43,799 bases of DNA from an uncultured Isosphaeraceae bacterium (GTDB lineage Bacteria > Planctomycetota > Phycisphaerae > Phycisphaerales > SM1A02). Both the position numbers and the translations under genes were made by a program. The stretch lies in contig CAZVXI010000001.1 of NCBI GenBank assembly GCA_964631295.1, positions 1 to 43,799 of the forward strand. The letters run 5' to 3'. Each line of letters opens with the position of its first letter. Position 1 is the stretch's first letter. The notes beneath the pieces are model-generated. The model was not told the origin of the DNA and ran no database searches. It saw only the letters and a program-made list of their open reading frames with translations. This document shows positions 19,166-34,587 of this stretch, piece by piece.

Positions 19166-22100
19166 TCACTTGATTGGACGATGCGGCTGATCGGGAGGGA
19201 AGATCTCGTCTCCGAGACCCGAATCGATCTGGTTCAGGAACCGACGCATCTGCTGAGGTGTCTGCGGGGCACCACCGTTCTCAAGGATGGGCTGATTGTT
19301 CGGGTCATACAGGATGACCGCGGGCTGAATGCCCATACCCACGAGCGACATACCGCCCGCCGCGTATGTGTCGCCGTCCTGTCCGGCACCGGTCAGCGTC
19401 AGGAACTTGGCTGAGATACCGGTCAGTGCAGCGGCCTGGCTGACGACGCCAGTGAGACCATTAACACTGCCATTACACTCCGTTGAGGCGACGCCGTCGA
19501 TCCGCGCCTTGGCGGTCGGTGACTGAAGCACTGAGACAATGAAGTTGTTCGGCAAGTCGTAGTTCCGCAGCAGAGTCTGATCCCAGCACGTGATGCAGCG
19601 GCGGGTGTTCGAGAACTTCGTCTCGTTCGTGTTCCACACATTGAACGCAGCCTTGGTCGTTACCGGCCCGGGTGAATTCATCGTGAAGTCCATGTCGAGG
19701 GGCATCAGCGTCAGGTCTTCATCAGACAGGACTGATACACCCGCAGCGATCGAGCTGAGCGCCATCGATGGCGGTGGGTTGAAGTTCAACTGCAACTGGT
19801 TGTAACCCGCGGCATAATCGAGGCCGTCGAGATTCAACACACCCGGCTCACCAAACTTGCCGCCATGCGGGATGAGGTCATCACACACACCGAACGCGTC
19901 TGCCTGGTACTCCCATGCGTAGGCCTGCCCGTAGTTGACGATTGTGGCTGCACCAGCGAGGTGGTTCCAGCGAATCTGCTCGTTGGAGTTATTCGTCGCC
20001 CAGAGGACAAGGAAACCACGCATCACACGTTCACCCGGACGTTCCGGATCAGGTCGGCCCGGCAGGCCGCCCATCGGCGGGTCAAGGACGTGCGCGAATG
20101 GTGACAGACCGCCGGCTGCGGGCTGGCCACTCTTCGCAGACCAGTATGTCGGCTGGTTACCAGTCAGCTGGAACGCATTATCCACGAAGTTCCAACCCGG
20201 GTGAGCCCGCTCGCCTGTTGCAGGGTCTGCCGGGATCGGCGGATCGCCGTTCACGAAGTAGAGTTGAACATAGACATCATCGCCGTAGTCATTGGTCAAC
20301 GCGATAAACGTATCCTGCAGAAGGTTGCCCTCATCGTCCCAGCGAATCTCGATCTTCGGGTAGATCAGCAGCGAGCCCTTCTCGTTGCGGACGCAGCGCG
20401 TCGGGCAATCGACTTCATCACATGTGAGACCGAATCCCAGGAAGTCGCCACCGTTGATTTGGTCACATTCCTCTGCAGTCACTTCGATACAGTCACCGCC
20501 TGGCAGGCAGCATGGCCCCACATCGCATTGAGCATCTGCACACAGGACGCCATCGCCCTGGAACACGCCATTGAACTCTTCTTCGCAGCAGATTTCTGCC
20601 ATCTCGATGCAGGTTCCATCCGGCAGACAGCAAGCGCCAAAGCCGCCGCACTGTGTGCCATCACCTTGGAAAGAGCCGCCCAGTTCATTGATGCAGCAGA
20701 TTTCCGCAACTTCAACACATGAACCATCCGGCAGACAGCACGCACCCGTGCCACCACAGACGGTGTCATCGCCCTGATAGCTGCCGCCCAGTTCGTTGAT
20801 GCAGCAGATTTCTGCAACTTCAACACATGAACCATCCGGCAAGCAGCAAGCGCCAGTGCCACCGCACACGGTGCCATCGCCCTGGAACGTGCCGCCGAAC
20901 TCTTCTTCGCAGCAGATTTCCGCCACTTCCACACACGAGCCGTCCGGGAGGCAGCAAGCGCCGAAGCCGCCGCACTGCGTGCCATCACCTTGGAACGTAC
21001 CGCCAAACTCATTGATGCAGCAGATTTCCGCCACTTCAACACATGAGCCATCTGGCAGGCAGCAGGCACCCGTGCCACCGCACACGGTGCCATCACCTTG
21101 ATAAACGCCGCCGAACTCGTTGATGCAGCAAATCTCTGCTACTTCAACACATGAGCCGTCAGGCAGACAGCATGCACCTGTGCCACCACATTCGGTGCCG
21201 TCGCCCTGATAGACGCCGCCAAACTCGTTGATGCAGCAGATCTCTGCTACTTCAACACATGAGCCGTCAGGCAGGCAGCATGCGCCAGTGCCACCGCATT
21301 CGGTGCCATCACCTTGGTAGGAACCGCCCAGATCCGCACAGCAAATCTCTGCCACTTCAACACATGAGCCGTCAGGCAAACAGCATGCACCTGTGCCACC
21401 ACATTCGGTGCCATCACCCTGATAGGAGCCGCCAAACTCGTTGATGCAGCAAATCTCTGCCACTTCAACACATGAGCCGTCAGGCAAACAGCATGCACCT
21501 GTGCCACCACATTCGGTGCCATCACCCTGATAAGAGCCGCCAAACTCATTGATGCAGCAGATCTCTGCCACTTCAACACATGAGCCGTCAGGCAGACAGC
21601 ATGCACCTGTGCCACCACATTCAGTGCCTTCGCCTTGGAAGGAGCCGCCGAACTCGTTGATGCAGCAGATCTCTGCGACTTCAACACATGAGCCATCCGG
21701 CAGGCAGCACGCACCCGTGCCACCACACTCGGTGCCATCACCTTGGAAGGAACCGCCGAACTCGTTGACGCAGCAGATCTCTGCGACTTCAACACATGAG
21801 CCATCCGGCAGGCAGCACGCGCCGGTGCCACCACACACGGTGCCGTCACCCTGGAAGGAACCGCCAGCAGCGAGGCAGCATGCTTCGGCAGTTACTGTGC
21901 ACGAACCGCCTGGCAGGCAGCACGCGCCGGTGCCACCACACACGGTGCCATCACCCTGGTAATCGCCACCAAACTCGTTAATGCAGCAGATCTCTGCGAT
22001 TTCGATACAAGAACCGTCCGGAAGGCAGCACGCGCCGGTGCCACCACACACGGTGCCGTCACCCTGATAAGAACCGCCGAACTCGTTGATGCAGCAGATC

Positions 22101-23887
22101 TCTGCCGCTTCAAGACATGAGCCGTCTGGAAGGCAGCACGCGCCGGTGCCACCACACACGGTGCCATCACCCTGGAACGAGCCGCCAAACTCGTTGATGC
22201 AGCAGATCTCTGCTACTTCAAGACATGATCCGTCCGGCAGGCAGCACGCGCCAAAGCCGCCGCACGTTGTGCCTTCACCCTGGAACGAACCACCAAGTTC
22301 GGTGCAGCAAAGCTCTGAGATTTCCAGGCACGAGCCATCGGGAAGGCAGCATGCTCCAGTCTCACCGCACGCCTGGCCGGGGAACCACGTTCCGCTTTGC
22401 TGAACGCACTCGATCTCGGAGGTCACAATGCACGAGCCGTCGGGCAGGCAGCATGCCGATTCAGTCGGGCGAAACTCGTAAATCACGGTGATTTTGCCCA
22501 CAGCGCGGTGCGGATCGCGAAGAACATCGCCCTTGCCAACACCCGCCGAAATCAAAGTTCCGATACCGCGGAGCGATGTCAGGAACGTGTCATCATCACC
22601 TTCGATTACGAAGTCAGCAAGCGGCGCTGTGATGCAGCCATCGTCCACTGCATCGGGTGCTGCTTCAAAGCACCACTGTTCGTTTGCTTCCGTGGTATTG
22701 TTGGCGTTGATTGTCTTGTCGCCATCACCGTTGTTGCAGCCACTGTCGATGCAAAAGCCCGGGAAGAAATACGGGCTTCGGAATGCCGTGAACTGACCGG
22801 GCTGGATAAACCCGCCAACACACTCCTCGCAGATCAGAAAGAACTGATCCGGCGCGACAAGCGAACCAACCGGGAACCCACCAAACAAGCCAATCGGGTC
22901 TCGCCAGATGTCGGGGAACTCATCGCCCGGACCGCCAGGAAGGCCGCCCGACGAGAAGTCCAGACCCGGCGCCTGAACATTATCGATCACGCCGTCGTCG
23001 TCTGTGAAGTTCGCGCGCATCTGCTCAACAATGAAGTTGGCGTCAGTCGTATCGACTGCAGCATCGTTGCCGCGGTTATCGAAGACCGCAACCAGAATAA
23101 CGCGGCCATCAACCATGATGCGAACACGCTCAAGCGTGCGTTCGTCGGATGTACCGGTGAGGAGATCAAACTTGTCGAACGTGAATTCGCGGTCCACAGC
23201 AAGCATCACGAAGTCAAAGAACTGGCACTGAACTTCCTGGGAAATTGCATCATCATCGGTCACCGGGCACGTGTTGCCTTCGCCACATTCGATGTTGGTT
23301 CCCTGGAAGAAGCCGCCCGCCAGATCACAGTCGTCGCGTGTCAGTGTCTGACAGGACCCATCGCTGAAGCAGCAGCCACCCGTGCCATTATCAATCGGAA
23401 AGGCCCAGAAGGTTTCATACGGATCATCAATCGAATCGCCGGGGCACTTGGAGCCGAAGCCCTGCCAGATGCCATCGGCCTCTTCACACTCGACGAGCGT
23501 CATGTTCGATTCACACGTGCCATCGCCGAGGATACAGGCACCATCGAGGCGGGTCGTGCCTGCGACATCGCAGATGATCTCATTGCACTGGATGTTGTCG
23601 CCGCGATACGAGCCGCCCATGGCTTCGCAATCCGCGGGTGTTTCCTGACTGCAGACCATGTCGCGCGTGATGGGGTCGAACACGCAGCAAGCCCCCAAGC
23701 ACGTCAAGTCCGCGCACAGGCTGCCGTTGCCATTGAAAAACCCACCCATTGCATTGCAGTCACCCTGTGTGAGTTCCATACAGGTGTCATCAGGAAGACA
23801 ACATGCCCCCTGACCGTACGCCTGTGGAGCGCAACACAACAGCACAAAGAGCGCTCCGATCATCAACAGAATTCGCGACGATGTCAT
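19166..23887 (-). CDS. Giant (about 1573 aa) secreted Cys-rich repeat protein ending in the shared A-B module
   Basis: The ATG at 23887 is preceded by GGGGAGA (8 nt spacer); the ORF track starts at a GTG at 23914. Signal peptide MTSSRILLMIGALFVLLCCAPQAYG. Next come four degenerate GACC...C...GG..G....C repeats, a ~270-aa unique region and 19 tandem 36-aa repeats. The A-B module spans 19166-20383 (EKGSLLIYPKIEIRW...LDP / LPGRPDPERPGERV...WNTNETKFSNTRRCITCWDQ...GKARIDGVAS). Confidence 0.9.
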   Translation of the reverse strand: MTSSRILLMIGALFVLLCCAPQAYGQGACCLPDDTCMELTQGDCNAMGGFFNGNGSLCADLTCLGACCVFDPITRDMVCSQETPADCEAMGGSYRGDNIQCNEIICDVAGTTRLDGACILGDGTCESNMTLVECEEADGIWQGFGSKCPGDSIDDPYETFWAFPIDNGTGGCCFSDGSCQTLTRDDCDLAGGFFQGTNIECGEGNTCPVTDDDAISQEVQCQFFDFVMLAVDREFTFDKFDLLTGTSDERTLERVRIMVDGRVILVAVFDNRGNDAAVDTTDANFIVEQMRANFTDDDGVIDNVQAPGLDFSSGGLPGGPGDEFPDIWRDPIGLFGGFPVGSLVAPDQFFLICEECVGGFIQPGQFTAFRSPYFFPGFCIDSGCNNGDGDKTINANNTTEANEQWCFEAAPDAVDDGCITAPLADFVIEGDDDTFLTSLRGIGTLISAGVGKGDVLRDPHRAVGKITVIYEFRPTESACCLPDGSCIVTSEIECVQQSGTWFPGQACGETGACCLPDGSCLEISELCCTELGGSFQGEGTTCGGFGACCLPDGSCLEVAEICCINEFGGSFQGDGTVCGGTGACCLPDGSCLEAAEICCINEFGGSYQGDGTVCGGTGACCLPDGSCIEIAEICCINEFGGDYQGDGTVCGGTGACCLPGGSCTVTAEACCLAAGGSFQGDGTVCGGTGACCLPDGSCVEVAEICCVNEFGGSFQGDGTECGGTGACCLPDGSCVEVAEICCINEFGGSFQGEGTECGGTGACCLPDGSCVEVAEICCINEFGGSYQGDGTECGGTGACCLPDGSCVEVAEICCINEFGGSYQGDGTECGGTGACCLPDGSCVEVAEICCADLGGSYQGDGTECGGTGACCLPDGSCVEVAEICCINEFGGVYQGDGTECGGTGACCLPDGSCVEVAEICCINEFGGVYQGDGTVCGGTGACCLPDGSCVEVAEICCINEFGGTFQGDGTQCGGFGACCLPDGSCVEVAEICCEEEFGGTFQGDGTVCGGTGACCLPDGSCVEVAEICCINELGGSYQGDDTVCGGTGACCLPDGSCVEVAEICCINELGGSFQGDGTQCGGFGACCLPDGTCIEMAEICCEEEFNGVFQGDGVLCADAQCDVGPCCLPGGDCIEVTAEECDQINGGDFLGFGLTCDEVDCPTRCVRNEKGSLLIYPKIEIRWDDEGNLLQDTFIALTNDYGDDVYVQLYFVNGDPPIPADPATGERAHPGWNFVDNAFQLTGNQPTYWSAKSGQPAAGGLSPFAHVLDPPMGGLPGRPDPERPGERVMRGFLVLWATNNSNEQIRWNHLAGAATIVNYGQAYAWEYQADAFGVCDDLIPHGGKFGEPGVLNLDGLDYAAGYNQLQLNFNPPPSMALSSIAAGVSVLSDEDLTLMPLDMDFTMNSPGPVTTKAAFNVWNTNETKFSNTRRCITCWDQTLLRNYDLPNNFIVSVLQSPTAKARIDGVASTECNGSVNGLTGVVSQAAALTGISAKFLTLTGAGQDGDTYAAGGMSLVGMGIQPAVILYDPNNQPILENGGAPQTPQQMRRFLNQIDSGLGDEIFPPDQPHRPIK
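20399..22462 (-). repeat. 19 in-frame tandem repeats of 105-120 bp (mostly 108 bp) encoding GACCLPDGSCVEVAEICCINEFGGSYQGDGTECGGT
   Basis: The period was checked directly: GTCAGGCAAACAGC recurs at 21371 and 21479 (108 bp apart). Units 21371-21478 and 21479-21586 differ at 3 of 108 nt. There are 6 Cys per 36-aa unit. The outer copies are more diverged than the central ones. Confidence 0.95.
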
Positions 23888-24490
23888 ATCAGGTATCTCC
23901 CCGCAGCTTGTCACACACCGATGTGTGATCGAACTGCAATTTTCCCCACGTGTTGTGGACCAAGAACTTCTTCACCGGCGAAAAGGCCGCAACCCTGACC
24001 AACAGCGCGCAATGACTTCGCCCTCGAGCCATTCCACCTTAGCGCATTGACCATGGTCACTTTCCACCCACTCCATTCGACCTGGGCCACTCCGCCCAGC
24101 GACTCTCCGCGATTTCATCGATGGTCCGGCGCGCTATGACGCGCGCTCGTCCTCGCGGATATCGGACATATATCACCAGAACACGCCGCCGATGTCAAGT
24201 AAAGACTTGGACTATCGGAACTTGTAGCGCGACATGAACTTCGGCAACTGTTCGATCGCGCACGCTGATCGACAGATCAGGCGAGCCGTCGACGTGAAAA
24301 CACTAACTGCATGGGATTTCGAGACTTATGAGGAGCTCGGCCTACGTTGCCACCGCGGATTTTCACCCGACATTGTTGACACAGATCCTTCCCTGCTTCG
24401 CAGCACTACCCAGTCTCACATCTGATGAAACAGCGCGCAATGGGGAGACGCCTAAAAGATGTCCACATGTCGCTTGTTAAGAGAGGCGAA

Positions 24491-24538: not shown

Positions 24539-24566
24539 GAAAAGTCGTTTGCAAGATCCAGCCCGC

Positions 24567-26777
24567 TTACGGGTCGAGGATCGTCCACGGTGATACGCCG
24601 GCCGGGTTGCCTGATGCAGCAGACCAGAAAGTCGTCTGGTTGCCCGTCAGCAGAATCTCATTGTCAACCCAGTTCCAACCCGGGTGTTCGCAAATATCGT
24701 TCGGTGTGACTTCCAACATGGGGTCATCGCCGTTCACGAACATCATCTGAACGCGAACATCTTCACCGAAGTCATTGGTGAGTTGGATGAACGTATCCTG
24801 GGTGACTTCGCCAAACTCGTTGAAGCGCACCTCGACCTTCGAGAACACAAGCAGGCTCCCCTTCTCGAAGACACTGCCACGTGCCACCGCACCGTCACCA
24901 CGACCAATCCCATCAAAGGTGGGTCGCGGGCGCGTGGGCTGTGTTCCACCGACAATTTCGTCTGGCGGTGCGAGCACGTCATAACTGATTGCAGCCGTTC
25001 GTTCACCCATGCCCACGAGGTTCATCGCAGATGCGTCGCCTCCGGGAACGCCCGGCGTTCCTCGAGCCACCGGTGGCAAAATGCGCTTTGTGGCAACACC
25101 GAGCAGGGACGCAGCCACTGAATCAGTGCATTCATCGGCAGCAACACCCGAGATTCGAGCCTTGCCAACCGTTGTCTGGAGATTGCTGATCAGGAAGTTG
25201 TTCGGCACGGATGCGTTGTCCGCAAACTGACTCAGGAGTGTTTCATCCCAGCATGTAATGCAGCGTCGTGTATTCGAGAACTTCGTCTCGTTCATGTTCC
25301 ACACATTCACCGACACCTTCGTGGTTGTCGGCCCGGCAGTGTTCATCGTGAGGTCTGCATCGAGCACGTGCAGCGTGAGGTCGGTTTCCGTGGTCACGAT
25401 CGCATCAAGACTCGAGACCATCGCGGCACCCGGCGCGACGAAGTTGAGCAACAACTCGTCGTAGGTGGCTGCATACTCGTCCCCATCAATGTTCAGCACA
25501 CCCGGCGTGCCGGACTGCTGTCCATGCGATGCTGCCGACGGCACGACTGGATATGCCATCGCACCGTATTCCGAAGCAGACGCTCCTCGATAATCAACGA
25601 CTGTCGCATGACCGGACAGGTGATTCCATCGAATCTCCTGATTGTTATTGTCAACGGCCCACGCAAGTACGTAACCGCGAATCACCCGATCTGATGACCC
25701 ATCCGGGTCGGGACGGCCTGGAAGTTCGCATGGTGAAGCGAGGAACTTAATCGTGATATCGCCCAGACCGGTCTGTCCATCGAACCCGGCAACCTGAATC
25801 AGGTATGACTGTCCCTCAACGGCCTGAAACTGAACAGCAGATTGAGCAGTCAACCCACGACTTTCTTCTGCAGTACAGATTGTACTATCGTCGTTACACT
25901 CGATCAGTGGTGGCAGCGGATCACAAGAATCGCCATCGTACACGCCCAGCGTCGTATCAAAGAGGCTCCCGCACAGGTCAACCTGCACAGTGCCAGTTGC
26001 AGGCGAGGTGAAGACGTACCAGATGTCATTGTTCTCGCCGAAAGTGCAACTGCTCGGCCCCCCATCCGCACCTTGCGTGTTGAACGGCTGATCAGTCACG
26101 AGGCCGATGGCCTCTGCATCGAAACAGTCATCGTTTGCGGGCGGTGCCAGCTCGGCACCTTCGAGTTCGAGATCATATTCGCCACACCCGAGGATGCTGG
26201 TGAGTTCACCGGACCATCCGATCAGTGGATCGGATGCACCCGCGCCAGTGGGACCAGTCTGGCCCATCGAAGGCAGGTCGAAGATGGAACCGGATTCGCT
26301 CACCGGCTCGCGCGAGTCGGCCACGATCGCAATGATGTATTCACCTGGGCCGGGAAGCACCTCGCACCCGTCGATCACAACCGGCGGAGAACCGTTGGGC
26401 GGCGGATCGAACTCGCCCCGCGCCTCCGAAAATGCTTCATCCGCACCGATCAAGCCGAATCCATCAAGGGAGAATATATACAATCGTGCGTCAAAGCACG
26501 GGCTGAACTCGATGAAGAACTCGCAAGGATCGTCGATGGTGATAATGAAGAGATCTTCAAAGTCACTTGGGTCGAGGCCGCCGCCACCGCGAGCGGTCGC
26601 TTCGAGGCCTTCGAGTCGACCACTGATCGATGTTACTTCTCCGCTGCCGCGCGTCCGCTGGGCGGTCCCGGACAGATTGCCAGCATCGCCATCCTCGACC
26701 CATTCCGGCCCGGCAAGAACACACGGCGCGATTGCCGCTGTCAGCGCGCCTGCCACCATCCACGGTTGCAAACCCAT
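24567..26777 (-). CDS. Secreted protein with two N-terminal jelly-roll-like modules and a circularly permuted (B-A) copy of the shared module
   Basis: The ATG at 26777 is preceded by AGGAGGGG. Signal peptide MGLQPWMVAGALTAAIAPCVLAG. The N-terminus has GDAGNLSGTAQ...DFEDLFIITIDD and ANDDCFDAEAI...DIWYVF...CNDD...SYLIQVAGF segments, which look like pre-peptidase-C-terminal (PPC) domains from memory only. Then B (25724 downward: LPGRPDPDGSSDRVIRGY...WNMNETKFSNTRRCITCWDE...GKARISGVAA...NLVGMG), a ~25-aa linker and A (24570-24866: EKGSLLVFSKVEVRF...HPGWNWVDN...LTGNQTTFWS...VSPWTILDP-stop). Confidence 0.85.
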   Translation of the reverse strand: MGLQPWMVAGALTAAIAPCVLAGPEWVEDGDAGNLSGTAQRTRGSGEVTSISGRLEGLEATARGGGGLDPSDFEDLFIITIDDPCEFFIEFSPCFDARLYIFSLDGFGLIGADEAFSEARGEFDPPPNGSPPVVIDGCEVLPGPGEYIIAIVADSREPVSESGSIFDLPSMGQTGPTGAGASDPLIGWSGELTSILGCGEYDLELEGAELAPPANDDCFDAEAIGLVTDQPFNTQGADGGPSSCTFGENNDIWYVFTSPATGTVQVDLCGSLFDTTLGVYDGDSCDPLPPLIECNDDSTICTAEESRGLTAQSAVQFQAVEGQSYLIQVAGFDGQTGLGDITIKFLASPCELPGRPDPDGSSDRVIRGYVLAWAVDNNNQEIRWNHLSGHATVVDYRGASASEYGAMAYPVVPSAASHGQQSGTPGVLNIDGDEYAATYDELLLNFVAPGAAMVSSLDAIVTTETDLTLHVLDADLTMNTAGPTTTKVSVNVWNMNETKFSNTRRCITCWDETLLSQFADNASVPNNFLISNLQTTVGKARISGVAADECTDSVAASLLGVATKRILPPVARGTPGVPGGDASAMNLVGMGERTAAISYDVLAPPDEIVGGTQPTRPRPTFDGIGRGDGAVARGSVFEKGSLLVFSKVEVRFNEFGEVTQDTFIQLTNDFGEDVRVQMMFVNGDDPMLEVTPNDICEHPGWNWVDNEILLTGNQTTFWSAASGNPAGVSPWTILDP

Positions 26778-26926
26778 CACAGCCCCTCCTGATTCACCGG
26801 CGGCTGTACACAGGTAATGCTGCGAGACGAGACAAGCACAGCAATCACTCAGCCACCTGTGGAGGGTGCAAGCCCCTCCGGACTCATATCTAAACGGATT
26901 TCCTGTCCAGATTCAAGACAGGTTCG

Positions 26927-26972: not shown

Positions 26973-26986
26973 ACGAGACATTCACT

Positions 26987-29656
26987 TTATTGACCGCGCT
27001 CCTCAGCCGGAAGCAATCGCTCATACTTGATCACCGCGTCTTGTCGGCCCATGCCGATCAACTCGCGGCCAGCCTTCGCAACCGCCAGCTCACCGTTGAT
27101 CGTCAGCTCACGCATGGCCACACCCAGCAGAGCAGCATCCACTGTTTCGGCACCGAGGATCAGATCACATCCAACGGAAGCAACGCCATCGATCCTGGCC
27201 TTGCCAACGAACGTCTGGAGGTTCGCCAGCAGGAAGTTGTTCGGCCACTGGTAACTGGACAGCAGCGACTGATCCCAGCACGTCAGGCATCGCGTCGTGC
27301 CCGAGAACTTCGTCTCGTTCATGTTCCAAATCTGGAACACGGCTCGCGTCGACAACGGACCAGCCGAGTTCATCGAGAAATCTGCATCGACGACATGCAG
27401 TGTGAGATCATTGCTTGACACAACCTGCTGGCCGGGCTTGCTGTACCCGAGCGAGCCGACGGCATCGAAGTTGAACTGCAACTGGTCGTACGCCTGTGCG
27501 TACTCGAAACCGTTGAGGTTCAACGTTCCAGGCTCACCAATCACGTCACCGTGCGCACCGGCAGTCGAAATCGCTCGCGCTGAATACGCGTTGTATTCCC
27601 AGGCGCTGCCGTGTGCGTAGTCAACGACTGTCGCGTTGGCAGCAAGGTGATTCCACCGAATCTGCTCGTTGTCCGCACTGACTGCGAAGGCGATGATGAA
27701 GCCCCGAAGAACACGCTCACCCGGACGTTCCGGATCGGGTCGACCAGGCAACACACCTGGATCGAGAACCGTGAACGGTGACACACCTTTGGGGTTGCCT
27801 GTGAGCACCGACCAGTATGCCGGCTCGTTGCCGGTCAACGTGATTTCGTTGTCAACCCAGTTCCATCCGGGGTGTTCGCGTTCATCAATCGTCGCGGGCG
27901 TCGGTTCATCACCATTCACGAAGAACATCTGCACGCGGACATCTTCGGGATAGTCGTTGGTCAGTGCGACAAACGTATCCTGCAGGATGTTGCCTTGGTT
28001 GTCCCAGCGCAGTTCAACCTTCGAAAGGATCAGCAGCGAGCCTTTTTGCGTTCCGATACGCAGCTCAGGTGCCGGGCAGGCATCGCCAATACCATCTCCA
28101 TCTGAATCTTCCTGACCAGGGTTGGGCTCGAAGACGCAGTTGTCTTCACAATCGAGCACGCCGTCACCATCCGTGTCGGTATCTTCATCGCCACAGCCAC
28201 AGACGCCAGGATCAATCTTGTTCGGATCATCCGGGCAGCCGTCGTTGCAATCTGCTACGCCGTCACCATCAGTGTCCGTGTCGGGCACGCCACAACCGCA
28301 GTCGCCAGGCTCGAGTTTGTCCGGATCGTTCGGGCAGTCGTCGTTGCAGTCTGCTACGCCGTCGCCGTCAGTATCCGTGTCGGGCACGCCGCAGCCGCAG
28401 TCACCGGGCTCGACTTTGTCCGGATCGTTGGGGCAGTCGTCGTTGCAGTCTGCTACGCCGTCACCATCAGTATCCGTGTCGGGCACGCCACAACCGCAGT
28501 CACCGGGCTCGACTTTGTCCGGATCGTTGGGGCAGTCGTCGTTGCAGTCTGCTACGCCGTCACCATCGGTATCTGTGTCAGGATTGCCGCACCCGCACTG
28601 GCCGGGCGCGATCTTGTCCGGATCATCCGGGCACAAGTCGTCACAGTCGAGTGTTCCGTCACCGTCACTGTCGATGTCCGGCGCGCCGCAACCGCAGACG
28701 CCAGGGTCAACCTTGTTTGGGTCATCTGGGCAGCCATCAACGCAATCCGCTACGCCGTCACCATCGGTATCTGTGTCAGGATTGCCGCACCCGCACTGGC
28801 CGGGCGCGATCTTGTCCGGATCATCCGGGCAACCGTCGTTACAGTCTGCAACGCCATCGCCATCAGAATCGATATCCGGCTCACCACATCCACATTCTCC
28901 CGGTTCGAATTTCTCCGGATCAAACGGGCAGCCATCACAGACATCGCCGAAGCCGTCGCCATCGGAATCCAACTGATCCGCGTTTGAGTCGTTCGGGCAG
29001 TTATCGCACGGCGCTTCGATGCCGTCGTTATCTGCATCGCCAAGGCATCTGGTTCCATCACCGCGATACGTGCCGCCGAGATTCGCGCAGTCGCTCTCGG
29101 TCGCATCTGTGCAAGTACCATCGTCGAAGCAGCACGCGCCGAGATTGCATTCAACTTCCGCGCAGGAGTCAAACTCATCACCAAAGTATGTGCCGCCTGC
29201 CGCAAGACAGTCGTCCTCGGTCAGGAGTTCGCAGTTGCCTGCGCTGATACAGCACGGCCCCTCTTCATCCGGGCAGGTGAATGGCTCGCAGATGGTGCCG
29301 TCGCCAAAGTACAAACCGCCCTGGGCGTCGCATTCGTCTTCAGTCGTCAGCTCGCAGGGAAGGTCCGGAACGCAGCACGCGCCAAGTGGCAGGCCTGCAC
29401 AGTTCACGTCCTCACAAGCAGTGAAGCTCCCCTGGTACTCGCCGCCGGCCTCGAAGCACTCGCTGAGCGTCATGACTTCGCAGGAGCCATCTTCGAAACA
29501 ACAGGCGCCTTCTGGCGCCGTCGAGAAGGCAGCGAGCACACCGACCTGCATCCATGCCTCGCCTCTGGCTTGAGCCACTGCAAAGCATTGCACGAACACA
29601 AGCGCACTCACCAGCGCAAAGACACCCCGAAAGTTTTTGTACATCATCTCCGCCAT
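26987..29656 (-). CDS. Secreted protein: Cys-rich GACC repeats, a thrombospondin type-3-like calcium-binding repeat array, then the shared A-B module
   Basis: Signal peptide (MAEMMYKNFRGVFALVSALVFVQCFAVAQA); the start is either ATG 29656 or ATG 29647. Four GACCFEDGSCEVMTLSECFEAGGEYQG..C-type repeats, about 9 TSP3-like units and the A-B module at 26987-28048 (QKGSLLILSKVELRW...TVLDP / GVLPGRPDPERPGERV...WNMNETKFSGTTRCLTCWDQ...GKARIDGVAS). Confidence 0.9.
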   Translation of the reverse strand: MAEMMYKNFRGVFALVSALVFVQCFAVAQARGEAWMQVGVLAAFSTAPEGACCFEDGSCEVMTLSECFEAGGEYQGSFTACEDVNCAGLPLGACCVPDLPCELTTEDECDAQGGLYFGDGTICEPFTCPDEEGPCCISAGNCELLTEDDCLAAGGTYFGDEFDSCAEVECNLGACCFDDGTCTDATESDCANLGGTYRGDGTRCLGDADNDGIEAPCDNCPNDSNADQLDSDGDGFGDVCDGCPFDPEKFEPGECGCGEPDIDSDGDGVADCNDGCPDDPDKIAPGQCGCGNPDTDTDGDGVADCVDGCPDDPNKVDPGVCGCGAPDIDSDGDGTLDCDDLCPDDPDKIAPGQCGCGNPDTDTDGDGVADCNDDCPNDPDKVEPGDCGCGVPDTDTDGDGVADCNDDCPNDPDKVEPGDCGCGVPDTDTDGDGVADCNDDCPNDPDKLEPGDCGCGVPDTDTDGDGVADCNDGCPDDPNKIDPGVCGCGDEDTDTDGDGVLDCEDNCVFEPNPGQEDSDGDGIGDACPAPELRIGTQKGSLLILSKVELRWDNQGNILQDTFVALTNDYPEDVRVQMFFVNGDEPTPATIDEREHPGWNWVDNEITLTGNEPAYWSVLTGNPKGVSPFTVLDPGVLPGRPDPERPGERVLRGFIIAFAVSADNEQIRWNHLAANATVVDYAHGSAWEYNAYSARAISTAGAHGDVIGEPGTLNLNGFEYAQAYDQLQFNFDAVGSLGYSKPGQQVVSSNDLTLHVVDADFSMNSAGPLSTRAVFQIWNMNETKFSGTTRCLTCWDQSLLSSYQWPNNFLLANLQTFVGKARIDGVASVGCDLILGAETVDAALLGVAMRELTINGELAVAKAGRELIGMGRQDAVIKYERLLPAEERGQ
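28075..29045 (-). repeat. About 9 tandem 99-bp coding repeats (33 aa): PDTDTDGDGVADCNDDCPNDPDKVEPGDCGCGV (TSP3-like)
   Basis: D-x-D-x-DGDG-x-x-DC-x-D-x-CP-x-DP acidic calcium-loop pattern, each unit closed by PG.CGCG. Three central units are identical or nearly identical at the protein level. The 33-aa periodicity is also visible in the antisense shadow ORF 28122-28976. Confidence 0.9.
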
Positions 29657-29750: not shown

Positions 29751-30845
29751 TTATGGACAAATCAGCCCCCAATTCGAGAGTACCTCAAGCAAGTCGGCAA
29801 GATTCACGACATTATCGGAGTTCGAATCCCCCGGACACGGCGCTGTGGGTTCGCAGCCTGCCTGGAGTTCGTAGCACCCCATGTCCACGACGAGGCCAAG
29901 AGAGGCAACGCCGCTATCCACAGTTGCCGGATCATTCACCCCTCGAGGTTCACCACCCACATCCTCAAGGAACGAATCGATCAACTGCGAGTTCGCTGCA
30001 TCGATGCATGGCGAACCGGCGTTCAATCGCAGGTTTGCCCCGCTGACAAAGTCCGGATCAGCATCGATGTTTCCGTTTCCCGGAGCACCGCCGGTACCCT
30101 GAATGTTGCTGTAACTGGCTGAAAGAGTCGGTTCCTGGAGATTGCCCGGATTCTGGTCGTTGAGCACGACGCCACCGCCGGCGTTGTCCCAGACGATACA
30201 GTTACTCAATGTCACACCTGAGAGATCGTCGTTCACGTGCACGCCCCCACCAGAGGAAGCGATGTTGTTCGCGATGGTGCAGTTGATCAGAGTCAATGCA
30301 CCGAACGAGATCGACACCCCGCCGCCGTTACCGGTCGCCACGTTATTCGTGATTTCACAGTTGAGAATCCGCGCACCGATCGCACTGGCCGCAGAGATAC
30401 CGCCGCCGACTGTCGCGATGTTGTCGGTGATGATGCAGTTCTGGACAGTAATGCCGGCATTACTAATGAACACGCCGCCGCCTGGTCCATCGGCACCCCG
30501 CGTGACCTGCCCGCCCGTCCCACCCGTGACGGTGAACCCGTCAAGGAAGGTCGAGTTGGCGTTCTGAATCCCGTCAACGACCACGGCTGCTCCAGCACCA
30601 GCGGCGTCAATCGTCGTCAGCGTCGGGCCTGCCGTCGCAACAATACGCAGGTTCAGATTCTCGAAGTTCAGCGGGCCGTATGTACCAGGTCCGACAAAAA
30701 TCGTATCGCCCCCACTTGCCATCGTGTCGATCACTTCCTGGATCGTGGCAGCATCACCGGGAACAAACCAGTCCGCAGCCCGTGCTTGGGACGCTGCAAT
30801 AAGCGCGCACGAGCCAACGAACGCGACAGACATCTTGCGATTCAT
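29751..30845 (-). CDS. Secreted right-handed parallel beta-helix repeat protein with one dockerin-like C-terminal segment
   Basis: The ATG at 30845 is preceded by GGAGAAAGG. Signal peptide MNRKMSVAFVGSCALIAASQARA. Beta-helix rungs (GGGVFISNAGITVQNCIITDNIATVGGGISA...NCEITNNVATGNGGGVSI...NCTIANNIASSGGGVHV). C-terminus CPGDSNSDNVVNLADLLEVLSNWGLICP. Confidence 0.85.
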   Translation of the reverse strand: MNRKMSVAFVGSCALIAASQARAADWFVPGDAATIQEVIDTMASGGDTIFVGPGTYGPLNFENLNLRIVATAGPTLTTIDAAGAGAAVVVDGIQNANSTFLDGFTVTGGTGGQVTRGADGPGGGVFISNAGITVQNCIITDNIATVGGGISAASAIGARILNCEITNNVATGNGGGVSISFGALTLINCTIANNIASSGGGVHVNDDLSGVTLSNCIVWDNAGGGVVLNDQNPGNLQEPTLSASYSNIQGTGGAPGNGNIDADPDFVSGANLRLNAGSPCIDAANSQLIDSFLEDVGGEPRGVNDPATVDSGVASLGLVVDMGCYELQAGCEPTAPCPGDSNSDNVVNLADLLEVLSNWGLICP

Positions 30846-30911
30846 GGGTAACACCTTTCTCCTGCAACCTCCGCGCGATCCCCTCAGATCGCCACGTGAT
30901 GCCACTTTCTT

Positions 30912-32255
30912 TTACTCTGTTTTCGCAGCAGTTGTAGTCTCGGTTCGCTGATTTCTGCTGGTCGTCCAAACAATCAGCTTTTCTTCAAGCACTGGCTTCG
31001 GCGGATCCGTTGACTGTTCGACCATAAGCCCGGTCCCGACGGCAAAATCGAAGAGTCCATCGCCGTTCACATCACCAAAACCAACGCCGGCCATGCCAGA
31101 CAATCCACGTTCGGGTAGGCCGCAATCTCTCTGGAACTCCCAGTTTCTCCCGCTTCCATCGCCAAGCAGCGCGTACACGCCCCGGATGTAGCCACTCTCG
31201 ATTTCAAGCCTTCCCGTGACAATCAGATCGAGGTTGCCGTCGTTATTGAGATCGCCAAGCGCGAGCCCTTGCGCACCGCCGTTCATCTCCTCAAAGACAT
31301 TGTCGGCCGCTTCCCATGTCCCATCCTCGGCCTGAAGAAAGACCTCCGGACCATCAATCCAGTTCGCAACGGCGATGTCCGGGCGACGATCGTTGTTGAC
31401 GTCGCCAACATCAAGACCGTGAAACAAGCCTCCGAGCATTGGAGTCGGCAAGCCGCGTGAGGCTGGCTCCCAATATCCTTCGCCATCGTTCAACCACACA
31501 CGGAGACCTTCCGAGTGCGAGGCAACCAAGTCCAGCACCCCGTCGCCGTTCATGTCATGCAGGATGACACGATTCGCCCAGGTCTTATCCGCAGGCAGAC
31601 CTCGAGAAACACGCTCCCAGTTCAAGCCGCTTCCATCATTGATATAGCAGTTGATTCCGCCCTCATCACTCGATCCAGCCACGATGTCGATGTCGCCATC
31701 GCCGTCAATGTCGCCAACGGCAAGATCCTCAGCTCCCATCCAGATGCGCTTCTTGTAATCCTGCAACTCCAGTGTCATGTCCTCCGGATGCATCTGCGCA
31801 ACAACCTGATCCCAGTTGCCAAGCCCATCCCCGAGATACACATACACACCGTTGCAGTGGTCTGCGACGACAAGGTCGGCATGCCCGTCGCCATTGACGT
31901 CAGCAGCTTCGATTCCGCCTCCGCACGAGTTGTCCTGAAGGACGAGCCCGTTGAAGGCTTCCGTCCACTCGCCTCGCCCGTCGCCAAGCCAGACGCGCGG
32001 TCCATGACCCAGACGCGGGATTGCCAGCAGGTCGAGATGACCGTCTGCATTGACATCCCGGAACGCTGGATCGCACTTCCACATCCCTTCTGTCGGAAGA
32101 CCGACCGAGGCGAGTTGGAACGAAACCTGCGCCGCCTTGTGTTGCGCTGCGGCGACTTCTGGCTGCGCGGGTGGCGTGTTCTTCGAAGTCTGGCTCTCGC
32201 ATCCCACCATACTTACGCATGCTGCCGCAACTGAGAGACTCATGACATGCTTCAT
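30912..32255 (-). CDS. FG-GAP/VCBS repeat lipoprotein
   Basis: MKHVMSLSVAAACVSMVGC lipobox. Repeated DVNADGHLDL, DVNGDGHADLVV, DIDGDGDIDIV, DMNGDGVLDLV, DVNNDRRPDI, DLNNDGNLDLIV and DVNGDGLFDF calcium-loop motifs. The start overlaps the upstream stop (ATGA). Confidence 0.85.
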   Translation of the reverse strand: MKHVMSLSVAAACVSMVGCESQTSKNTPPAQPEVAAAQHKAAQVSFQLASVGLPTEGMWKCDPAFRDVNADGHLDLLAIPRLGHGPRVWLGDGRGEWTEAFNGLVLQDNSCGGGIEAADVNGDGHADLVVADHCNGVYVYLGDGLGNWDQVVAQMHPEDMTLELQDYKKRIWMGAEDLAVGDIDGDGDIDIVAGSSDEGGINCYINDGSGLNWERVSRGLPADKTWANRVILHDMNGDGVLDLVASHSEGLRVWLNDGEGYWEPASRGLPTPMLGGLFHGLDVGDVNNDRRPDIAVANWIDGPEVFLQAEDGTWEAADNVFEEMNGGAQGLALGDLNNDGNLDLIVTGRLEIESGYIRGVYALLGDGSGRNWEFQRDCGLPERGLSGMAGVGFGDVNGDGLFDFAVGTGLMVEQSTDPPKPVLEEKLIVWTTSRNQRTETTTAAKTE

Positions 32256-33187
32256 TGCTGATCTGCTCCGTTCTGTTCGGCAGTCGCCGGATTATGCAGG
32301 ACCCACTCACCATTCTCCCGAATCCATCGTTCGATGACGAGCGTTGTCTTTGGCTGCATCTTTTGCAGACTCGGGTCATTGTACTTGAACTGCACGAACG
32401 CACCAATACGGCCGGCATCGTCGATTACTTCCACCCATTCCACCCGGCACTGTACGAAAATGAGCAGGTCCTGGGCGTCAGCAAACTGCTGCGCAGTCGT
32501 CGTCGATTTCGACTCACTCGACATCATGTCGAACAACTTGGCCCACTCGCGATCGTGCCGGTACTGCCAGCTCTTTTCAAATCGCTCGGCGAGTTCAGTT
32601 TCTGCGTCAATATCGCGGATCGCCGGCGTTTGCGGGAGGTTCCCCGCGGTTGGAGAGTTCACTGGCAGCCAGCGGTCTTCTATATGCATCCACGGCTCCC
32701 AGACACGCGTGTCACGCGGCGGGACGCTTGGCATGCGGCGCATCGCAACGCTCTGTTGAACCTCAACCCAACCAATCTGGCCCTGCGCGTAGACCTCGCC
32801 GATCTCAAAGGACTCCCACTTGAACGGTTCGTTCGCCTCGGACCATTCGATGTAGGCATCCATCGTGTTGGCTTCCTGGAAGTCGGCCCGCTGGAACTCA
32901 TACATGGAAGCAAAGTCGTCTGCGATGCGGGCTTGCCAGAGGCGGTCTGCGGCTGCTGCGAGCGCATCAGCACGATCGCCCGTGTTCGAGGGCGGCTCCG
33001 TGTTGACGAAGGTGATGGACTGCTCTTCGACCTCTGACTTCACGTCGCTCACCGCCACACTCGCATTGCTGTCACTGTCCGCACCATTCTGATCGCACGC
33101 TGGCAATGCCAACAGACATCCGATCAGGATGAGCGATGATGCCACGCCACGCCCGGGCGCGAGAACAAGCCGAATATCTTCTGCCAT
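32252..33187 (-). CDS. Hypothetical lipoprotein, first gene of a three-gene operon
   Basis: The ATG at 33187 is preceded by GGGAGGA (9 nt spacer). MAEDIRLVLAPGRGVASSLILIGCLLALPAC has a lipobox. ORF 32252-33220 also offers earlier ATGs. No recognisable domain. Translationally coupled to 30912-32255. Confidence 0.65.
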   Translation of the reverse strand: MAEDIRLVLAPGRGVASSLILIGCLLALPACDQNGADSDSNASVAVSDVKSEVEEQSITFVNTEPPSNTGDRADALAAAADRLWQARIADDFASMYEFQRADFQEANTMDAYIEWSEANEPFKWESFEIGEVYAQGQIGWVEVQQSVAMRRMPSVPPRDTRVWEPWMHIEDRWLPVNSPTAGNLPQTPAIRDIDAETELAERFEKSWQYRHDREWAKLFDMMSSESKSTTTAQQFADAQDLLIFVQCRVEWVEVIDDAGRIGAFVQFKYNDPSLQKMQPKTTLVIERWIRENGEWVLHNPATAEQNGADQQ

Positions 33188-33339
33188 TGTGGGGAATCCT
33201 CCCATTGGGTTCTTCCACATTCTGTATGCAGAACGCAGACAACCAAGCGATCTTGCGGAAAACTCGCGGAACTGGCCGCTGCGACGTCCGGAAATCCGGC
33301 CTGCGCGAGTCGTTCCTGAGGTGGCAATATGGGAAACTG

Positions 33340-33386
33340 CACAGCATCAATTAGAACAGGGGCAACGAGCGAACTCGCTGCCCCTG
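33340..33386 (-). terminator. Terminator of the stand-alone module gene
   Basis: Positions 33357-33386 form a 12-bp stem with one mismatch around a CGAA/TTCG loop. The minus strand continues TTCTAATTGATG. It begins 37 nt after the stop at 33424. Confidence 0.6.
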
Positions 33387-33423
33387 TGTCAGGTCACGCT
33401 TGGGTCAGAGACCCGTATCGCGA

Positions 33424-34587
33424 TTAGCGACCACGACGCGGACGGATTGCGTCGACGATTTCATCCGGACCACCCGCGAGGGCGTCGTACTGGATGGTGG
33501 CCGACTCAACACCCATACCGACCAGGTTCGAGCCTGCAGCTGAGAGACCAGCTTCCATGACGATGAGCTTGTGGGAGATGCCGAGCATCGGCAGAGCTTC
33601 CGACGTCAGGAAGTCGTCACATTCGAAGGCAGCGGTGCCATCGATGCGAGCCTTGCCAGCCGCGGTCTGAATGTTCTGCAGAAGGAAGTTGTTCGGGATG
33701 AACGCGTTATCTGCATACTGGCTCAGCGGGGTCTGGTCCCAGCAGGTGATGCAACGGCGGGTGTTCGAGAACTTGGTCTCGTTCATGTTCCACACGTTGA
33801 TCGTGGCCTTCGTGCGTCGGGGGATGCCGTCCATACGGAGGTCGGCGTCGACGAGGTGAAGGGTCAGGTCGGTGTCAACAACGATCGCACCCGTCGGCGG
33901 GAACAGTTGGCTGACGAGCGGGGCACCCGGGGCAAAGAAGTTGAGCAGCAGTTCGTTGTACGGCTGCGCGTAACCCTGGGCGGTACCGTCCATGTTGATG
34001 GTGCCATCAGCAGCGACTGCGGCACCGTGGGGCACACCGCTACCGACCTGCGACGACCATGCGTTGTACTCGTAGGAAGTACCAAGCTGGTAGTTCACAG
34101 TCATGCCGCTACCACTGAGGTGGTTCCAGCGGATGGGCAGGTTGTCGAAGTCGACAGCCCATGCCATGGCATAGCCACGGTACACGAGGTTGCCGAAATC
34201 GTCGACGATCGGCGGGCCAGCGGAGCTGAACGGAGAGACGTTGCCCGAACCCACGCCGTCACCTGCCGGGTTGCCGTTGTGCGACGACCAGAAGATGGGC
34301 TGGTTTGCGGTCAGCGTGATCTGCGTGTCCACGTTGGTCCACGAGTCGCCATTGATGAAGTAAAGCTGAACGTCAACGTCTTCGTTGAAGTCGTTGGTCA
34401 GCGACAGGAACGTGTCCTGAATGACCTGACCAAACGGGTCCACGATGACTTCAATCTTCGAGAAGATAACGAGACTGCCCTTCTCGGAAGAGCTGACACG
34501 ATCCTGTTCGGCGTTTGCCGAAGCGGGCATGAGCATTGTGGCTGCGATGCCGCAAGCTGCGATGCCAAGAACTGATTTCTTATTCAT
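33424..34587 (-). CDS. Stand-alone copy of the shared A-B module (signal peptide plus module only, 387 aa)
   Basis: ATG at 34587. Signal peptide MNKKSVLGIAACGIAATMLMPASANA, then directly SSSEKGSLVIFSKIEVIV...TNDFNEDVDVQLYFINGD...IRWNHLSGSGMTVNY...WNMNETKFSNTRRCITCWDQ...GKARIDGTAAFEC...NLVGMG...PDEIV. It lacks the LPGRPDPERPGE loop found at the A/B junction of the other copies. Confidence 0.85.
   Translation of the reverse strand: MNKKSVLGIAACGIAATMLMPASANAEQDRVSSSEKGSLVIFSKIEVIVDPFGQVIQDTFLSLTNDFNEDVDVQLYFINGDSWTNVDTQITLTANQPIFWSSHNGNPAGDGVGSGNVSPFSSAGPPIVDDFGNLVYRGYAMAWAVDFDNLPIRWNHLSGSGMTVNYQLGTSYEYNAWSSQVGSGVPHGAAVAADGTINMDGTAQGYAQPYNELLLNFFAPGAPLVSQLFPPTGAIVVDTDLTLHLVDADLRMDGIPRRTKATINVWNMNETKFSNTRRCITCWDQTPLSQYADNAFIPNNFLLQNIQTAAGKARIDGTAAFECDDFLTSEALPMLGISHKLIVMEAGLSAAGSNLVGMGVESATIQYDALAGGPDEIVDAIRPRRGR

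Follow-up and report, generated by a model that had tools for sequence, protein, structure and literature searches.

Four minus-strand genes within 15 kb of one another, in the 43,799-nucleotide stretch of planctomycete DNA analysed here (the window), encode secreted proteins that consist of, or end in, the same module of ~360 residues. The question raised by this locus is whether the module belongs to any described domain family, and what function could be served by a domain that stands alone in one protein and follows very different N-terminal regions in the others.

A two-part module in four neighbouring genes

The first-pass annotation had described a two-part module (part A and part B) in four genes, and all four ORFs were recovered as it gave them, with pairwise BLASTP and the family HMM in agreement. 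In pairs, the modules share 41-54% identity over 260-372 residues (BLASTP E 4.5e-84 to 1.6e-134; overall 1e-75 to 1e-134 among the four genes), and in a MAFFT alignment the other copies are 46-47% identical to the stand-alone copy. An internal duplication among part A, B1 and B2 was not detected by hhalign (probability <=5.6%). The module proteins carry type I signal peptides (AxA/Q).

The stand-alone gene (33424..34587, minus strand) encodes a signal peptide (…ASANA/EQD) followed by the module alone (family HMM aa 31-406 of the ORF), as expected from the claim that the module is the whole mature protein. The motif strings proposed earlier hold as a consensus, but the stand-alone copy of the window itself lacks the ERAHPGWN loop and LPGRPDP, both of which are more than 95% conserved across the family.

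Two larger proteins bear the module at the C-terminus, again as first annotated. The Cys-repeat secreted protein of about 1573 aa (19166..23914, minus strand; ATG at 23887) contains ~15 copies of a 36-aa CCLPDGSC repeat (108-bp repeat x15.6 in the gene), and its module lies at about 19235-20398 (aa 1173-1560 of the 1582-aa ORF by the family HMM). The 889-aa secreted protein (26987..29656, minus strand) is composed of Cys-rich units, 33-aa TSP3-type repeats with a TSP_3 match (99-bp repeat x7.8 in the gene) and a module at about 26996-28054 (aa 535-887 of 889 by the family HMM).

The fourth protein, of 737 aa (24567..26780, minus strand), had been called 'rearranged', and both the HMM and BLAST place part B before part A. 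Part B (24948..25736, minus strand; aa 349-611 of the ORF) covers HMM positions 132-394 and was aligned by BLAST with the other three copies, while part A (24570..24884, minus strand; aa 633-737) covers HMM positions 29-133 (BLAST E 2e-25 to 5e-39) and closes the protein precisely at …TILDP-stop. Judged from the sequence, this ORF carries a clean, true circular permutation of the module. The N-terminal part of the same protein resembles a galactose-binding domain, with a PF23759 GBD_T9SS_assoc score of 24.5 bits, just under the cut-off of 27.

Fold, family and conservation

Neither the HMM comparisons with Pfam/NCBIfam and the PDB nor Foldseek gave a full-length match to a characterised family. 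At the curated cut-offs, no Pfam or NCBIfam profile matched the module in the four window proteins, and the 44 family members searched gave just six unrelated single-member matches (E>=0.007), so the earlier statement that the module bears no such signature stands. Against the PDB, the best sequence match had an E-value of 0.27 (phmmer), and the best profile match, spanning 40 aa of an encapsulin at an E-value of 2, can be put down to chance. AF2 predicted a confident, compact all-beta fold for the stand-alone module (pLDDT 86, pTM 0.85) and also modelled the permuted copy (aa 340-737; pLDDT 81.8, pTM 0.82), in which strands 1-3 of the five in part A reach pLDDT 91-95 and strands 4 and 5 score lower (block means 59-88). 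No whole-fold match, covering most of the module at TM>0.5, was found by Foldseek: the best TMq was 0.25 in the PDB, 0.21 in BFVD and 0.17 for the permuted model against the PDB, the last search having been run in case the rotated order resembled a known fold. The family comprises at least 1585 clusters at 50% identity. On the searches and the models, the module is a real all-beta domain of ~360 residues that is absent from the Pfam, NCBIfam and PDB families, and it is a candidate new fold. The compact model and the occurrence of the module alone, fused, in tandem and permuted bear out its description as an autonomous, mobile domain.

One sub-domain superposes on ASRT/TM1070 (PDB 2ii7, 1nc7) and on the pro-TGF-beta arm (probability 0.85-1.0), the TMt for the latter being just 0.17-0.29. 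TM1070 itself matched with a probability of 1.0 and a TMt of 0.75, and ASRT with probabilities of 0.96-0.98. The superposition (120-175 aligned columns; TMt 0.5-0.75 for ASRT/TM1070) covers ~1/3 of the module at 6-13% identity, the whole-module TM is <=0.25, and PF07100, the profile of the ASRT/TM1070 superfamily of single ~110-aa beta-sandwiches, had no sequence match in the 44 members; we speak here of a resemblance in fold rather than of homology. De Souza, Iyer and Aravind reportedly proposed in 2009 that the ASRT/TM1070 fold binds small molecules or sugars. The module could accordingly be a lectin-like domain for a sugar or another small molecule, the binding option in the first-pass annotation, with the fused copies as adhesin or capture tips and the free copy as an abundant binding protein, and its many invariant W/Y/H/D/N/R residues, as well as its beta-helix (pectate-lyase-like) and PA14/fibro-slime neighbours, would suit such a role. 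We nevertheless consider this unlikely, since only some third of the module is matched, with an identity near 10%, the module is C-terminal in 130 proteins and N-terminal in only one, and it is fused to enzymes, VWA or propeller domains, of which the VWA domains and propellers are themselves binding units. Moreover, a soluble binding protein would have no need of fusions with two modules or of tandem paralogs, of which there are up to five.

All named matches, and all 73 loci that were kept, come from Phycisphaerae/Planctomycetota metagenome-assembled genomes (~28), with several to many module paralogs per genome, and every member is annotated as 'hypothetical'. As far as these sequences reach, the family is large and confined to Phycisphaerae-type planctomycetes. 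Among 375 family proteins, the module stands alone in 164, the commonest form, is C-terminal in 130, N-terminal in 1 and internal in 3, and further architectures include tandem two-module proteins and circular permutations at two recurrent breakpoints. The N-terminal partners are very diverse across the family, as the first-pass annotation had said of the window: FG-GAP with DUF11, SdrD_B/SpaA, HYR, P-domain, NHL propeller, beta-helix, M28 peptidase with PA, VWA, TSP3, choice-of-anchor E and GBD_T9SS_assoc. That annotation had further suggested a 'functional head'; to a head at the distal tip, the strong C-terminal bias, with the single N-terminal and three internal cases, lends no support. 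In other phyla, homologous cargo domains (choice-of-anchor E, GBD_T9SS_assoc, TSP3/MtsC-like, DUF11/SdrD_B) precede C-terminal sorting or anchoring signals. Because the module occupies this same position, it looks, by analogy, more like the base or attachment end of the proteins than like their tip.

The C-terminal bias, together with cargo types common to T9SS, PEP-CTERM and LPXTG substrates and a nearly invariant Arg six residues ahead of the first strand (DRVSxxEKGS), would also be expected of an export or sorting domain that is read by an outer-membrane translocation or attachment machinery, in the manner of the T9SS CTD or an autotransporter, and possibly then removed. This is distinctly unlikely, given that the commonest form carries no cargo, that no gene for a translocon accompanies the locus, and that the module is ~4 times larger than known sorting domains. 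In addition, the permuted forms that end in part A and the three internal modules argue that the module is not a terminal peptide signal. The T9SS CTD of Bacteroidota is likewise a C-terminal beta-sandwich on very diverse secreted cargo, including GBD_T9SS_assoc-like domains; however, it has only ~80-100 aa, is not known to occur alone as a major protein, and depends on a terminal position and on cleavage by PorU, whereas the module has ~360 aa and occurs in stand-alone, permuted and internal forms. The T9SS C-terminal-domain profiles of Pfam and NCBIfam did not match the module. Nor did the autotransporter beta-domain profile, and an outer-membrane barrel or autotransporter was dropped in view of Foldseek matches to soluble beta-sandwiches and of C-termini that are basic and variable, with no terminal aromatic residue.

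Conservation is uniform across the family. All 269 modules compared (269/269) fall within ~45% identity, with the stand-alone and fused forms intermixed, and ~45 positions are at least 95% conserved. This uniformity across paralogs fits a single interface common to all of them. The invariant polar and aromatic set comprises K36, D58, N65, D66, D81, R137, H156, D249, N267, E270, C279, C282 and C323, and a site for a ligand, a metal or catalysis would be just as compatible with these residues; an intramolecular isopeptide bond (K36 with D368 or N267, plus E270) and a CxxC...C...H zinc site are leads. The even conservation, which includes K36, H156, D249, E270, C279-x2-C282 and C323, could indicate an enzyme whose Cys/His/Asp/Glu/Lys residues form a catalytic or self-cross-linking site (isopeptide or ester bond, transpeptidase or carbohydrate-active centre). 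We hold this to be very unlikely. The Cys residues may just form a disulfide or metal site, no Pfam or NCBIfam catalytic family was matched, and Foldseek found no domain-level match to an enzyme fold, the matches to GH2, transglutaminase 2 and PAD2 being to accessory beta-sandwich domains (TM <=0.17). The end of a 1200-aa Cys-repeat stalk, or of another enzyme (M28), would also be an odd position for a catalytic domain. A sortase-like active site ('CITCWD' compared with 'LxTC') was dropped, as no sortase appeared among the fold matches.

Locus order, partner genes and signs of expression

The neighbourhoods of the homologs revealed a conserved locus order, which opens with a stand-alone module gene, continues with genes for a ~300-aa lipoprotein and an FG-GAP lipoprotein, and then has those for giant proteins that end in the module and for beta-helix proteins with dockerin tails. 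In the window, the ~300-aa predicted lipoprotein (…LLALPAC/DQ; 32252..33220, minus strand) is built of two similar W-rich halves and has no match in Pfam, NCBIfam or the PDB, including a profile search of the PDB, while database searches returned at least 3-4 relatives. Its homologs occur in 20 loci, with one copy in each genome. In 18 of these the gene comes immediately after a module gene, and in the other two (L026, L033) a module gene lies within ~4 kb. The next gene (30912..32255, minus strand), with a 4-nt overlap, encodes an FG-GAP beta-propeller (PF13517, E 8e-46) with a lipoprotein signal (…SMVGC/ES), and close homologs (jackhmmer E<=2e-81) immediately follow the lipoprotein gene in 19 other loci.

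Six nucleotides past the FG-GAP gene lies the gene for a beta-helix protein (29751..30905, minus strand; PF13229, E 2e-10) with a dockerin-like C-terminal tail (…NLADLLEVLSNWGLICP), and in at least nine loci a homolog comes after a giant protein that ends in the module. The last gene of the cluster (17474..18865, minus strand; PF13229, E 7e-11) encodes a second beta-helix protein, whose duplicated dockerin-like tail scores 17.1 bits for Dockerin_1, under the cut-off. Both beta-helix proteins of the window have such a tail, as do 7 of 15 close homologs; across the loci, 29 ORFs carry one, and one tail reaches 25.1 bits against a Dockerin_1 cut-off of 22.9. With the beta-helix genes directly 3' of module genes, the module might be imagined as a docking receptor, a cohesin-like partner of the tails (DLLxVLxxWGxCP) on the adjacent beta-helix and other local proteins. 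We regard this as most improbable, because adjacency is the sole link between the two. There was neither a Pfam match to cohesin nor a cohesin among the top Foldseek matches. Dockerin-like tails are widespread in Planctomycetia, and no module homolog from Planctomycetia is among the matches listed.

The cluster is bounded upstream by an intrinsic-terminator-like site with a 14-bp stem that closes a PA14/fibro-slime gene (35363..35394, minus strand), and downstream by a tRNA gene on the opposite strand (17185..17256, plus strand; Rfam RF00005, 75.5 bits). The locus encodes neither an outer-membrane barrel nor an usher, a secretin or a sortase-like protein.

The stand-alone gene shows the strongest codon bias of the 20 genes in the window (ENC 36.5, GC3 0.75; all others ENC 44-57), and in 13 of 18 loci, those outside the window being ranked from crude ORF calls, the stand-alone module gene is among the first three. 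About 40 nt past its stop codon lies a strong terminator- or attenuator-like RNA hairpin (33359..33384, minus strand), the fold of 33340-33400 having a dG of -33.2 kcal/mol and a z of -6.15, with 0 of 200 shuffles as stable. Codon bias and 3' hairpin together give the free copy the layout expected of a major subunit. Stand-alone paralogs also form arrays, with up to five genes in a row (L031).

A proposed shared unit of surface assembly

The reading that we favour, at rather less than even confidence, is that the module serves as a shared surface-incorporation or co-assembly unit, in which the free copy would be the abundant base component. An 'assembly unit of a cell-surface system', as the first-pass annotation put it, agrees with the conserved locus, with the paralog arrays and with the signs that the free copy is highly expressed. 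The presumably strongly expressed free copy would be exported by Sec and be the main material of a lattice, coat or fibre at the surface. The paralogs, with their adhesin-like stalks, VWA domains, propellers or enzymes, would use the module either to enter this structure or to bind one common envelope receptor, so that their variable N-terminal parts are displayed. The two translationally coupled lipoproteins, the ~300-aa protein and the FG-GAP propeller, could provide a membrane-attached platform, and the dockerin-tailed beta-helix proteins may be further attached components. That the module lies at the surface, binds itself or a receptor and works with these partners in such roles is inferred. 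Against this reading stand the lack at the locus of a barrel, usher, secretin or sortase-like gene, the low Foldseek similarity to pilins and S-layer proteins, the invariant residues and the ASRT/TM1070-like sub-domain noted above, and the two family motifs missing from the free copy of the window.

The literature yielded no described surface system or shared C-terminal domain of Phycisphaerae that matches the module, and the closest parallels are found elsewhere. S-layer families are known in which three CWB2 repeats are shared by Clostridioides difficile SlpA and its Cwp paralogs, or SLH by Bacillus anthracis Sap/EA1 and the BSL proteins. As here, one module is common to the most abundant surface protein and to many paralogs with unrelated domains, and the paralogs are grouped near the highly expressed major gene. 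In contrast, the present module has no sequence or fold relation to these modules (no match to SLH or CWB2, PF00395 and PF04122, at E<=1 in the 44 members), and is encoded by bacteria with a diderm envelope, its free protein being the module alone without a separate lattice domain. Pilus families, namely chaperone-usher pilins with two-domain tip adhesins and the type V FimA/Mfa pilins, resemble this locus in that a major subunit gene, here a putative one, stands in first place with a hairpin after it; they also share with it minor or tip proteins that combine the same domain with extra N-terminal domains (VWA, lectin-like), and several paralogs per locus. However, the usher, chaperone, sortase and Arg-protease logic is missing here, and the signal of the module proteins is of the Sec type I kind and has no lipobox. 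Foldseek found no meaningful similarity to pilins or S-layer proteins (CfaB, CooA and PapD, probability <=0.18), and type V pilins gave no profile match and are not named among the top Foldseek matches.

A more specific version of the favoured assembly reading, which we put forward as rather doubtful, is a Phycisphaerae-specific system in which the new-fold module builds a coat or fibre by homotypic contacts, the lipoprotein pair anchors it, and the module brings in dozens of accessory proteins, namely adhesins, enzymes and dockerin-tagged beta-helices. The N-terminal strands of the module may possibly act in trans in such a structure, as would be in keeping with natural circular permutations that recur at two sites and with fusions of two modules.

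In marine, sediment and engineered systems, Phycisphaerae are abundant as degraders of polysaccharides. To our knowledge, next to nothing has been described of the way in which their cell surface is built and decorated, and the module family is probably a major component of their envelope. Defining the family would help to annotate giant surface proteins by the hundred, and would offer structural biology a candidate new fold together with a set of naturally occurring circular permutants. The three-gene core of module, lipoprotein and FG-GAP lipoprotein makes a tractable system in which to study how proteins are attached to the surface in Phycisphaerae.

A module shared by four window proteins

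The four-copy module is real and without annotation. By ORF call and translation, it lies on the minus strand in a stand-alone ORF (33424–34677, with a 387-aa mature protein), an 889-aa protein (26987–29656), a 737-aa permuted protein (24567–26780) and a ~1573-aa protein (19166–23914), in a window of ~58% G+C. In agreement with the first-pass annotation, the copies in the 889-aa, ~1573-aa and stand-alone proteins are 41–54% identical in BLASTP (E 4.5e-84 to 1.6e-134), and the aligned span comprises the C-terminal ~350–390 residues of the two longer proteins and the entire mature 387-aa protein. Two motifs present in >95% of the family members, the ERAHPGWN loop and LPGRPDP, are missing from the stand-alone copy of the window.

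The proposed novelty of the module was upheld by sequence and by fold. Profile searches found no Pfam-A or NCBIfam signature in the module in any of the four window proteins, and 44 family members gave only six unrelated single-member matches to these databases, all with E ≥0.007. All PDB chains, searched by sequence and by profile, yielded no credible match. The AlphaFold2 model of the stand-alone module, built from a 44-sequence alignment, is a confident, compact all-β fold of ~22 strands (mean pLDDT 86.2, pTM 0.85) rather than a low-confidence or disordered one, and hhalign detected no internal repeat. Foldseek returned no whole-module match in the PDB and BFVD (query-normalised TM-score ≤0.25). 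One sub-domain locally matches TM1070 (probability 1.0, target-normalised TM-score 0.75), and also the sandwiches of the pro-TGF-β arm domain and SIDT2 ectodomain (probability 0.85–0.99, target-normalised TM-score ≤0.29).

The 24567–26780 copy, earlier described as rearranged, is a clean circular permutation according to the family HMM and BLASTP, since its two pieces match the other copies in swapped order. Profile positions 132–394 lie at aa 349–611 and positions 29–133 at aa 633–737, with the stop codon immediately after ...TILDP. In the AlphaFold2 model of aa 340–737 (pLDDT 81.8, pTM 0.82), the strand set is unchanged and its order rotated, the linker from part B (~250–300 aa) to part A (~100 aa) is disordered, and strands 1–3 of part A have pLDDT 91–95, the last two being of lower confidence. 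The permuted copy is thus predicted to adopt the same fold as the others. Foldseek with this model, able to expose known folds related by permutation, found no PDB match below E 1e-3; the top-picked likenesses were again the ASRT/TM1070-type sandwich and the pro-TGF-β arm.

Spread, conservation and architectures of the family

A word-indexed database search recovered 221 relatives, all unnamed or 'hypothetical', whose named sources are all Phycisphaerae, Phycisphaerales or Planctomycetota MAGs. An exhaustive profile search covering 1.84 billion cluster representatives gave 1585 proteins at E ≤1e-3, including 656 at E ≤1e-30. The family is large and phylogenetically narrow: among 185,579 species genomes scanned there were 176 matching stretches, and the 80 best of these represent 73 loci in ~28 MAGs. 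Every one of these is from Planctomycetota (two bear the label Isosphaeraceae or Planctomycetia), and a genome typically has several of the loci.

At ~45% identity, 269 non-redundant modules form a single cluster, in which the nearest neighbour crosses the stand-alone/fused divide in ~20% of cases. In the family alignment ~45 positions are ≥95% conserved, including KGS (36–38), QDT (57–59), ND (65–66), GD (80–81), RG (137–138), NHL (155–157), D249, WNxNE (266–270), CxxCWD (279–284), N299 and C323. The uniformity of this conservation across the paralogs suggests a single common interface. The invariant polar, aromatic and Cys residues, together with the ASRT/TM1070-like sub-domain, are compatible with a putative ligand-binding head, which we consider unlikely, and equally with a putative enzyme, which we regard as quite improbable.

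Among 375 family proteins, the module stands alone in 164, is C-terminal in 130, forms a two-module tandem in 22, is circularly permuted in 38, internal in three and N-terminal in one; 17 are other or partial. The 'functional head' proposed earlier therefore probably names the wrong end of the fused proteins. Five consecutive stand-alone genes occur in one Phycisphaeraceae MAG (locus L031:9806–17224), and 3–4 consecutive module genes each in loci L006, L016 and L024. Stand-alone members continue for 25–45 aa past the last strand (e.g. window 33424–33500). The sequence of these tails is not conserved; common to them are a PPE motif, a short amphipathic segment and basic residues at the very C-terminus (…DRLSR, …RSRSSSKK). 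They could act as a signal or in binding to the membrane or to LPS.

The permuted proteins have two recurrent classes of breakpoint, at profile positions ~70–110 (31 proteins, including 23 at ~90; e.g. P0141, P0148, L005:6417–11498, L017, L063, L070 and L072) versus ~120–140 (seven proteins, including window 24567–26780, P0052, P0097 and P0170). Their usual terminus is the exact end of part A. Tandem duplication followed by truncation would explain their origin, two-module intermediates being present, and would account for the retention in their linker of the motif [QE]DRVSxxEKGS, which in stand-alone proteins directly follows the signal-peptide cleavage site.

In the window, the domains N-terminal to the module are TSP3 repeats, Cys-rich repeats and a GBD_T9SS_assoc-like domain; other loci add FG-GAP + DUF11, SdrD_B/SpaA, HYR, P-domain, NHL propeller, β-helix, M28 peptidase + PA, VWA, choice-of-anchor E and MtsC-like TSP3. 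In other phyla, such domain types lie upstream of C-terminal signals for sorting or anchoring (T9SS CTD, PEP-CTERM or MYXO-CTERM, LPXTG), whose place the module occupies in the fused proteins. It could accordingly be read as a pure C-terminal export signal, but this is disfavoured: the stand-alone form, the commonest, has no cargo, part A terminates the permuted proteins, and the module is internal in three proteins.

Two repeat regions are tandem arrays at the DNA level: 20619–22296 (108-bp unit ×15.6, a 36-aa CCLPDGSC Cys-rich repeat, with a higher-order period of 429 bp) and 28158–28933 (99-bp unit ×7.8, TSP3-type). For the Cys-rich repeat, Pfam offered no family and only a weak DUF6799 match. 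In the 19166–23914 protein, a ~260-aa region that separates the first Cys units from the array (aa ~220–480; …QCQFFDFVMLAVDREFTF… to …VIYEFRP) gave no family match and may be a further domain outside known families.

The conserved locus and its expression cues

The module cluster spans 34587 to 17474 of the minus strand. Its eight genes encode, in order, the stand-alone module (33424–34587; translation, family HMM), a ~300-aa predicted lipoprotein of no known family in profile searches (32252–33220), an FG-GAP propeller with a lipobox (30912–32255; 4-nt overlap with the preceding gene), a β-helix protein (29751–30905), the TSP3-module protein (26987–29656), the permuted-module protein (24567–26780) and the Cys-repeat-module protein (19166–23914), both by translation and family HMM, and a second β-helix protein (17474–18865).

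The cluster is limited upstream by a 14-bp-stem terminator 3' of a PA14/fibro-slime gene and downstream by a tRNA gene on the opposite strand. The PA14/fibro-slime protein (35427–36404, minus; TIGR02148, E 7e-35), just upstream with this strong terminator at its end, has homologs near module genes in loci L004 and L020. Just past the tRNA boundary, 12757–17064 (minus) encodes a respiratory module unrelated to the cluster, with a 923-aa molybdopterin oxidoreductase followed by a 502-aa membrane protein, a 4Fe-4S dicluster/NrfD-like fusion. A 754-aa ORF (9108–11372, minus) has no Pfam match and no homolog across the collected module loci. Two non-coding gaps of unusual length, 34588–35362 (~775 bp, 5' of the stand-alone gene) and 23888–24566 (~680 bp, 5' of the Cys-repeat gene), gave neither an Rfam family nor a consensus σ70 promoter.

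The lipoprotein gene is present in 20 loci, one per genome, with a module gene directly upstream in 18; for L026 and L033 the closest one is ~4 kb downstream. In the 19 of these loci other than the window's, a close FG-GAP homolog directly follows the lipoprotein gene, that of L010 being cut by a contig end. β-helix homologs lie directly 3' of giant module-terminated proteins in at least nine loci. A duplicated DxDGxGxVxxxDLLxVLxxWGxCP terminates both window β-helix proteins, seven of their 15 close homologs and also the two-module proteins; one such dockerin-like tail exceeds the Pfam Dockerin_1 cut-off (25.1 versus 22.9 bits). This second recurrent C-terminal tag occurs on β-helix proteins adjoining module genes and on other local proteins (window 17474–18865, 29751–30905 and 2140–3228; L008, L016, L040, L054, L057, L062, L064 and L066), and on none of the single-module proteins checked. 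That the module is a putative receptor of these tails seems highly improbable, the adjacency of the genes being the one observation that points to it.

Codon bias sets the stand-alone gene apart from the other window genes (ENC 36.5, GC3 0.75, versus ENC 44–57 in 19 other genes), and the module gene 5' of the lipoprotein gene ranks 1–3 in codon bias in 13 of the 18 operon loci, by crude ORF calls. In the 203-nt gap between the two window genes, a 14-bp hairpin (33359–33384, minus) lies ~40 nt past the stand-alone stop codon (ΔG −33.2 kcal/mol, z −6.15) and may attenuate read-through. Codon bias and hairpin are both as expected of a major subunit, suggesting that the stand-alone product would be made in excess over those of the downstream genes.

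Function of the module

The function we infer, and tentatively prefer, is that of a shared surface-incorporation or co-assembly unit. This reading draws on the bias in module position and the kinds of cargo, on the stand-alone form standing first in a conserved operon, on the expression cues of its gene, on the paralog arrays and tandem fusions, and on the conservation uniform across paralogs. The free stand-alone copy would serve as the abundant base, the fused paralogs would be displayed via the shared module, and the two lipoproteins (~300-aa and FG-GAP) would provide a membrane platform.

The organisational logic resembles that of Gram-positive S-layers with their CWB2 and SLH families, and of those pilus loci whose tip proteins carry the major subunit's domain. 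Tests of membership by profiles, fold, signal type and terminal requirement were negative for the compared systems apart from the ASRT/TM1070 superfamily, for which the sub-domain's structural resemblance stands beside a negative PF07100 profile search of 44 family members. We rate the module as an undescribed domain family built on a known organisational principle; that it amounts to a truly new system of surface assembly is doubtful.
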